Below, in pieces: positions 63,224-64,000 of a stretch of 64,000 nt of DNA. The stretch is taken from NCBI RefSeq assembly GCF_036507355.1, contig NZ_AP027877.1, one strand, 5' to 3'. Source of the stretch: Escherichia coli (lineage in GTDB: Bacteria > Pseudomonadota > Gammaproteobacteria > Enterobacterales > Enterobacteriaceae). Numbering within the stretch: the first letter of the stretch is position 1; each line of letters opens with the position of its first letter. The notes under the pieces are model-generated. The model ran no database searches. It was not told the DNA's origin and saw only the letters and a list, made by a program, of their open reading frames with translations. The position numbers and the translations under genes were made by a program.

Positions 63224-63714
63224 TCAAAACTGAAAGCGCATCCAGGCAAAGTACACATTACCATTGTTGTAGGTACCCGGAATATAGGTCATCTGAAAAG
63301 TCACTGGACCATAACCCACGGAGGCCAATGGCAGTAGAACCGGGAGAGGGATGTTATTCCAGTTATCACGTGCCGTTACGCCAGCGGTGAATCCCAGACC
63401 TAAATGAAAAGTTTCATCCGCCAGCGGTCGCCAGGTACTTTCCCATCCGTATCCGGCAATCGGTTCCCATTTGTTCCACGAGTCCTTAAATGCCATGGCA
63501 TACAGGCCATGCCAGTTTCCTTTTTCATCCCAACGCGACAGGCCAAAACCGCCACCCCACGGTCGCTCGTTATAGCGATCGGTTTTTTCTTTGTCGTAAG
63601 CGAAACGTGCATGCCAGGTGATGGCAGGAATATATAAATCATAATGTTCAGGCTGTTGCCAGGTTTGTGCAATATTTTCTCTAAACGTTGTCATCCACTC
63701 ATCTGCGTTAGCAA
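63224..63714 (-). pseudogene. pagP: Lipid A palmitoyltransferase pagP, severed from its start codon and most of its signal peptide by IS1
   Basis: ORF 63224..63694 encodes mature PagP ([23 protein letters not shown]...); upstream codons ...ANADEW continue to 63714, where the reading frame runs into the IS1 terminal repeat. Confidence 0.8.
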
Positions 63715-64000
63715 GGTAATGACTCCAACTTATTGATAGTGTTTTATGTTCAGATAATGCCCGATGACTTTGTCATGCAGCTCCACCGATTTTGAGAACG
63801 ACAGCGACTTCCGTCCCAGTCGTGCCAGGTGCTGCCTCAGATTCAGGTTATGCCGCTCAATTCGCTGCGTATATCGCTTGCTGATTACGTGCAGCTTTCC
63901 CTTCAGGCGGGATTCATACAGCGGCCAGCCATCCGTCATCCATATCACCACGTCAAAGGGTGACAGCAGGCTCATAAGACGCCCCAGCGTCGCCATCGTG
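63715..64000 (-). mobile_element. IS1 insertion sequence, partial (terminal inverted repeat and 3' part of insB; continues past the window end)
   Basis: ggtaatgactccaacttattgatagtg at 63715 matches the IS1 terminal inverted repeat; minus-strand ORF 63730..63996 is the InsB C-terminus. Confidence 0.92.
63730..63996 (-). CDS. insB: IS1 transposase InsB, C-terminal fragment (5' end beyond the window)
   Basis: Translation [88 protein letters not shown]. Confidence 0.9.

Follow-up and report, generated by a model that had tools for sequence, protein, structure and literature searches.

A predicted null allele of pagP at an IS1 junction within the signal-peptide codons of an Escherichia coli strain

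The end of the 64-kb stretch of E. coli DNA analyzed here (the window) carries cspE, most of pagP, and part of an IS1 element. The features are the following:

62840..63223, minus strand: cspE (62840-63049) and the 174-nt pagP-cspE spacer, intact, downstream of the disrupted gene
63224..63714, minus strand: pagP remnant, CDS nt 71-561, from the second base of codon 24 to the end of the stop codon
63224..63694, minus strand: remaining ORF of greatest length (156 aa), with Met27 of the precursor (mature Met6) as its start
63706..63714, no strand assigned: predicted 9-bp IS1 target, CGTTAGCAA, proposed from the duplications in 16 of 20 census events
63715..63737, minus strand: right terminal inverted repeat (IRR) of IS1, abutting pagP, 23 nt, 0 mismatches
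63715..64000, minus strand: right-hand 286 bp of the 768-bp IS1 element, colinear with full E. coli copies
63730..64000, minus strand: 3' part of insB (C-terminal part of the InsAB' transposase), NF033558 match

Minus-strand translation showed that the pagP remnant encodes the last signal-peptide residue and the whole mature PagP in an uninterrupted frame. The stop codon is located at 63224-63226, and upstream of it the frame reads through ...MTTF... and ...LANADEW. The original prediction had placed an intact pagP frame between 63224 and 63714, and these coordinates were exact. The homology to pagP ends at 63714, and the IRR of IS1 begins at 63715. By alignment to wild-type E. coli pagP, the break was mapped between nt 70 and 71 of the 561-nt CDS, in codon 24 (Phe). 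This position falls within the signal peptide of 25 codons and precedes the cleavage site (between A and NADEW) by two codons, showing that IS1 is indeed found in the signal-peptide coding region of pagP, as had been proposed. IS1 takes the place of CDS nt 1-70 (23 codons and one further base), and the cspE-side part of pagP is without its promoter, ribosome-binding site, start codon, and 23 of the 25 signal-peptide codons. The proposed separation of the pagP body from its promoter and start codon was likewise borne out, as CDS nt 1-70 are not joined to it and no in-frame start was found upstream of Met27.

The remnant is still readily recognized as PagP. When its translation (63712 to 63227, 162 aa) was compared with NF008271, the NCBIfam PagP equivalog model, a score of 297.8 bits was obtained (cut-off 155). 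The alignment covered profile positions 30-188 of 188, with only the N-terminal signal region missing, and by the curated cut-off (PF07017 / NF008271) the remnant belongs to the PagP family. The residues His33, Asp76, and Ser77 (mature numbering), which we take to be the catalytic ones, are all present in the translated remnant; this fits a recent inactivation without further decay. A start codon with an N-terminal Sec signal peptide was not found in the remnant. Since IS1 stands in place of the 5' 70 nt and no in-frame start precedes Met27, it is best classified as a pagP pseudogene and not as a functional family member.

Next to pagP, the sequence at 63715-63737 (GGTAATGACTCCAACTTATTGAT) matches the IRR of IS1 exactly, in agreement with the terminal inverted repeat that had been proposed where pagP ends. 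No match was expected in 100 shuffles, and this is the sole copy in the 64-kb window. The same IRR is present in 10 of 14 full IS1 copies in the loci L001-L015, the other four having one mismatch. The segment 63715-64000 aligns colinearly, at 284/286 identity, with full 768-bp IS1A/IS1B copies over their bases 1-286 (numbered from the IRR end). Typical copies differ from it at two positions, 63820 and 63997, neither of which alters the insB-encoded protein. Among the 5426 complete E. coli genomes, no full 286/286 match to this IS1 part was detected, the best being 285/286 (99.7%). The insB stop codon TAA at 63730-63732 is in a frame different from that of pagP, and the ORF at the window end (63730-63996 and beyond) matches NF033558, the model of the IS1 transposase, over profile positions 138-199 of 199. 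That the score of 69 bits falls short of the whole-protein cut-off (100) is due solely to truncation of the ORF by the window end. Together with the colinearity over 286 bp, this match supports the original claim that insB runs on the minus strand past the window end.

In summary of its family features, the segment has a terminal repeat of about 23 bp at the boundary and an insB that ends a few bases inside the IRR. It thus resembles other cases of gene inactivation by IS1 (IS1A/IS1B) in E. coli/Shigella in its terminal repeat, in its identity of 284/286, in the usual insB end and stop, and in its AT-rich target; it differs from the IS1A/IS1B copies by the two synonymous substitutions. The direction of IS1 transcription is the same as that of pagP. 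The visible part is the right-hand 286 bp, with insA and the frameshift site located outside the window. This is the sole IS segment, with no other IS1 segment in the 64 kb. Past the window end, the element very probably continues as a full-length IS1.

IS1 is multicopy (a median of 10 places per E. coli genome) and assemblies err at repeats, so a mis-join of reads at the repeat, with pagP intact in the strain, was considered as the origin of the junction. Against this, the join coincides exactly with the final base of the IS1 terminal repeat, and its other side is unique pagP sequence, as for a real transposition, whereas mis-joins arise within repeats and not at their boundary with unique DNA. 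Moreover, equivalent junctions are present in many finished genomes. An assembly artefact is therefore hardly credible.

Upstream of the break, the pagP frame extends into IS1 up to a TGA at 63773-63775. Between this TGA and Met27 (ATG 63694), no ATG, GTG, or TTG is present in the pagP frame, and its extension into IS1 contains neither a canonical start nor a hydrophobic core. An in-frame fusion with insB or the use of an IS1-borne start was ruled out by the TGA, the lack of a start codon, and the position of the insB TAA in the other frame. Secreted PagP is thus not restored by a fusion from the visible side, a possibility that had been raised along with the original prediction: the frame stops at the TGA, and insB ends in the other frame. 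The 156-aa ORF that is left has no signal peptide, and its sole possible ribosome-binding site is a GAG three bases upstream. Since there is no in-frame start upstream of Met27, any product would be made without a signal peptide.

PagP is an outer-membrane beta-barrel enzyme and must be exported to act on lipid A. Because export is required and the product would have no Sec signal, the allele is best called null. Judged from its sequence, pagP was very likely disrupted by IS1 transposition with loss of function, and it is almost certainly inactivated by IS1. We propose that an IS1 copy transposed into the chromosomal pagP of this E. coli strain with insA-insB reading toward pagP. By this event, the PhoP-dependent promoter, the ribosome-binding site, the start codon, and 23 of the 25 signal-peptide codons would have been displaced by at least 768 bp or lost. 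The promoterless body of pagP would have stayed joined to cspE, with Met27 as the first usable start and a product without a Sec signal. The strain is predicted to be unable to palmitoylate lipid A, and hepta-acylated species would be absent, including upon PhoPQ activation or outer-membrane stress. Modest changes in cationic-peptide resistance and TLR4 recognition could follow. In Shigella flexneri, a close relative of E. coli, the pagP promoter is bound by PhoP and is PhoPQ-dependent (PMC5775216).

Residual function of the allele would need a transcript and an exported product. The transcription of insAB is directed toward pagP, the frame of the remnant is intact, and the catalytic residues are present; IS1 read-out or a hybrid promoter at the junction might therefore yield a product, starting at Met27 or a near-cognate codon, that palmitoylates lipid A. 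In addition, PagP that is exported but partly deleted in its N-terminal helix was reported to be active in vivo (PMC2887491). However, the signal peptide is gone in the present allele, the IS1 extension provides no canonical start or hydrophobic core in its place, and PagP produced without a signal peptide aggregates in the cytoplasm, forming inclusion bodies (PMC2887491). No sigma-70-like site was detected in 62700-64000 by a scan that also missed the native cspE promoter, and the TTGGAG hexamer of the IS1 end, when inspected by eye, is not followed by an acceptable -10 element in the pagP flank at a spacing of 16-18 nt. In principle, the remnant could be transcribed to some extent by read-through from the weak IS1 promoter, and a cytoplasmic product from Met27 is conceivable but would not reach the outer membrane. 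We consider a partly functional pagP to be very improbable.

The pagP remnant was also compared with the gene of a near-isogenic relative. This relative, L023 (Logan contig ERR3330519), is identical to window positions 49115-63714 at 14598 of 14600 nt. The alignment ends exactly at 63714, and pagP of L023 is intact (186 codons), thus representing the empty site. The comparison with pagP of related strains that had been suggested as a check showed the intact gene in this near-isogenic strain. The pagP remnant is 491/491 identical to the intact L023 gene. As L023 is intact and the alignment ends at 63714, the insertion is recent and specific to the strain or to a narrow sublineage.

Over the 14.6 kb, the window and L023 differ at just two nucleotides, 49722 (G vs A) and 58937 (C vs T), neither of them in pagP. 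Compared with the common allele of E. coli PagP (strain Combat11I9, L003), the remnant has three nucleotide differences, two of which are nonsynonymous and lead to the residue differences N125T and Y144N. Decay after the insertion, with N125T and Y144N as signs of relaxed selection, was ruled out, since the intact pagP of L023 has both.

L023 was located via a rare allele of ybeF; the common YbeM allele (1937 blocks) was uninformative. In the ybeF gene (58962-59915, plus strand), whose product is a LysR-type regulator with a usual length of 317 aa, the sixth codon is a nonsense codon (VDSNN*, stop at 58977-58979), and the longest ybeF ORF left starts with a GTG at 59115 and comprises 266 aa. 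The truncated YbeF allele BED23322.1 is common to the window and L023 and was found in only 3 contigs, recorded from E. coli only. For the adjacent 11.7 kb, no complete RefSeq E. coli genome (n=5426) was above 99.5% identity.

The junction itself was found nowhere else in the collections searched. An exact 41-mer across it had no match in the genome contig collection, a 32-mer had none in the metagenome contig collection, and the exact junction is absent from all 5426 complete E. coli genomes. The gene-position collection contains no record of exactly this 156-aa remnant product. The ceiling of 99.5% identity over 11.7 kb had raised the possibility that the DNA comes from Shigella. This origin was discarded, because a single IS segment is present in the 64 kb, the truncated YbeF allele is recorded from E. 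coli only, and papers on S. flexneri and S. sonnei treat pagP as present.

On the other side of the remnant, the locus is unchanged. cspE and its 174-nt upstream region are 100% identical to those of L023, the relative with intact pagP. The order cspE, crcB, ybeM, tatE, lipA is the same as in all E. coli loci examined, and the chromosomal position expected for PagP (dcuC - pagP - cspE - crcB) was found on the cspE side, which is the side inside the window. At the junction, no promoter-like site was found in a scan that is insensitive and also missed the native cspE promoter. An effect of IS1 read-out on cspE, which had been mentioned as a possibility, thus has no support here. Elsewhere in the window, a cluster of seven tRNA genes at 24403-25106 (plus strand; Met-Leu-Gln-Gln-Met-Gln-Gln) corresponds to the usual E. 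coli metT-leuW-glnUW-metU-glnVX operon. It explains the ORF-free gap at this position, which is not anomalous.

Disruption of pagP by IS1 has precedents among annotated genomes. Among RefSeq genomes of E. coli, pseudogenes of this kind are annotated in, for example, MB06232 (NZ_CM129885.1), S1-INA-02-A (NZ_CP145663.1), MB51 (NZ_CP073946.1), tcmA_3 (NZ_CP059835.1), and O121 201805972 (NZ_CP119441.1). In all five, IS1 is located at the 5' end of pagP as in the window, and its orientation is the same in four. Most of these genes are labeled by PGAP as 'incomplete; missing N-terminus'. On the coordinates of the wild-type locus (pagP CDS 2501-3061), their junctions at 2989, 2984, 2969, and 2967 are 2-24 nt apart from the window site at 2991. 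None has the exact junction of the window, their flanks are at most 99.5% identical to it, and some have adjacent deletions. Because the junctions differ, they represent independent events in unrelated backgrounds.

Two further kinds of pagP alteration were considered for comparison. In lab-evolved E. coli, IS5 insertions in the dcuC/pagP intergenic region were described under kanamycin selection (PMC6307192). There, as here, the same locus was repeatedly struck by a resident IS element; these lines differ in the element, in the intergenic site, and in the effect, which would be regulatory and not due to a broken CDS. Engineered pagP deletions were made in Salmonella GMMA vaccine strains (PMC4820502) and in BL21 (pagP::hygR; PMC11253626). 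The same phenotype is expected from them, namely no PagP-dependent hepta-acylated lipid A. In contrast to these deliberate constructs, the window allele is a natural IS1 insertion in which the mature coding region is kept.

The frequency of such insertions was determined by querying 5426 complete E. coli genomes with pagP plus an IS1 end in both relative orientations, a design that would detect simple insertions anywhere in pagP. IS1 in or beside pagP was found in 15 and 23 complete genomes with the two query orientations, respectively. The first 15 were all oriented as in the window; this apparent orientation bias was rejected as an artefact of query design, since the mirrored query yielded the 23 genomes with the opposite orientation. 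Junctions were then read in 21 representative loci and mapped onto the wild-type locus. Inside the pagP CDS, 14 independent IS1 events were counted, in about 30 genomes (~0.55% of the 5426). Their positions are 2808, 2814, 2842, 2920, 2923, about 2930, 2944, 2967 (twice, in opposite orientations), 2969, 2984, 2989, 3048, and 3061, the event at 3048 being carried by 13 genomes. Five of the census insertions are within 25 nt of the window site, and with the window, six junctions fall in 2967-2991, at the boundary of signal peptide and mature protein. Further IS1 copies were found in the pagP-dcuC spacer, in dcuC, and in cspE.

All 14 CDS events are located within the first 254 nt (2808-3061, or 45% of the gene from its 5' end), and the last 307 nt are free of them; this distribution has P about 1.5e-5 under the uniform expectation. 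The AT content is 0.60-0.68 in the first 254 nt and 0.60-0.78 when the 5' part is taken with the upstream spacer, compared with 0.38-0.55 in the 3' part. IS1 prefers AT-rich targets. The clustering in the AT-rich 5' part of pagP is best explained by this preference, so that the event in the window needs no selective explanation.

The number of hits in such a short gene (14 independent IS1 events in 561 bp among 5426 genomes) and the recurrence of the IS5 insertions in the dcuC/pagP intergenic region of the kanamycin-selected lines (PMC6307192) could also suggest that the recurrence reflects selection and not target preference. Loss of pagP would then be adaptive in the lineage, for instance by altering TLR4 signaling or the interaction with antimicrobial peptides or aminoglycosides. 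The distribution of sites argues against this, since insertions in the 3' 307 nt would be equally inactivating but are not found; the sites track AT content, which fits the target choice of IS1 and not selection for loss. In addition, the AT-rich intergenic region, cspE, and dcuC are struck too, only ~0.55% of the genomes are affected, and the closest relative of the present strain keeps pagP intact. We therefore regard adaptive loss in this lineage as improbable. A slightly lower probability still is given to pagP::IS1 as a convergent adaptive loss-of-function allele whose recurrence results from selection against lipid A palmitoylation in some hosts or niches.

The pagP::IS1 allele of the window represents a recent and ordinary knock-out by IS1, in a region that is a hot spot for this element, and its kind is already known. 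IS1-disrupted pagP is a recurrent and already annotated allele type, in which the junction described here is new but unremarkable. It adds one more case of IS-mediated pseudogenization; of wider relevance is only the repeated occurrence of IS1 in the 5' part of pagP among natural E. coli.

The census also indicates how the pagP 5' end was probably separated from the rest of the gene. Target duplications of 8-9 bp were found in 16 of 20 IS1 events at the pagP locus. By analogy with these events, a simple insertion with duplication of the 9 bp at 63706-63714 is likely in the window, and the 5' end of pagP is assumed to be displaced by the element rather than deleted. After a simple insertion, the left end of IS1 would be followed by a second copy of the 9-bp target and then by AAGCTTTACCAACGCTGATT..., the rest of the signal-peptide codons. 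Past the window end, this would read as 482 further IS1 bases ending in ...AAGTTGGCAGCATCACC, then the 9-bp target, then AAGCTTTACCAACGCTGATTAACTGAATAAAAAC... (pagP codons 23 to 1), and then the ~585-bp pagP-dcuC spacer.

The remaining 4 of the 20 events have no target duplication, and adjacent DNA is lost. In MB51 (2984; L002), the loss extends up to 57 bp before dcuC, and in tcmA_3 (2989; L001) it extends into dcuC. The O121 group (2967; L025: O121 201805972, VL7S7, YJ6) has lost dcuC entirely, up to dpiA, and the LAU-OXA group (L027: LAU-OXA, CH459, MINF_8D) has lost DNA into dpiB, with pagP intact and the loss beginning in the spacer upstream of it. Both of the junctions closest to the window's own at 2991, namely 2989 and 2984, are of this deletion type. 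The window junction could thus be the endpoint of an IS1-associated adjacent deletion or of an IS1-IS1 rearrangement, with the 5' end and promoter of pagP, and possibly dcuC, dpiA, or dpiB, absent or far away. We consider this unlikely, although it has a realistic share of the probability: the 16 simple insertions with 8-9 bp duplications are the majority at this locus, and L023 has the full pagP-dcuC-dpiAB region, so that any deletion would have to be very recent. Whether by simple insertion, which is favored, or by deletion, pagP would be inactive either way.

Some of the census loci illustrate how disrupted genes are treated by automated annotation. PGAP calls pagP intact in two settings where IS1 has taken away all or part of the signal peptide: in tcmA_3 (L001 2501-2995) as a 164-aa product with a start codon ATT within the IS1 end, and in the group of NT1N25 and 12 similar genomes (L024 2501-3037) as a 178-aa product without the first 8 codons. 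From their sequences, the pagP genes of tcmA_3 and of the NT1N25 group are probably nonfunctional. That truncated pagP is called intact by some automated annotation matters where lipid A phenotypes are deduced from annotation. In TUM13770 (L014 2501-3268), IS1 is located in the 5' end of cspE with a 9-bp duplication (CACTTAACG), and cspE is annotated as a shortened 204-nt CDS abutting IS1.
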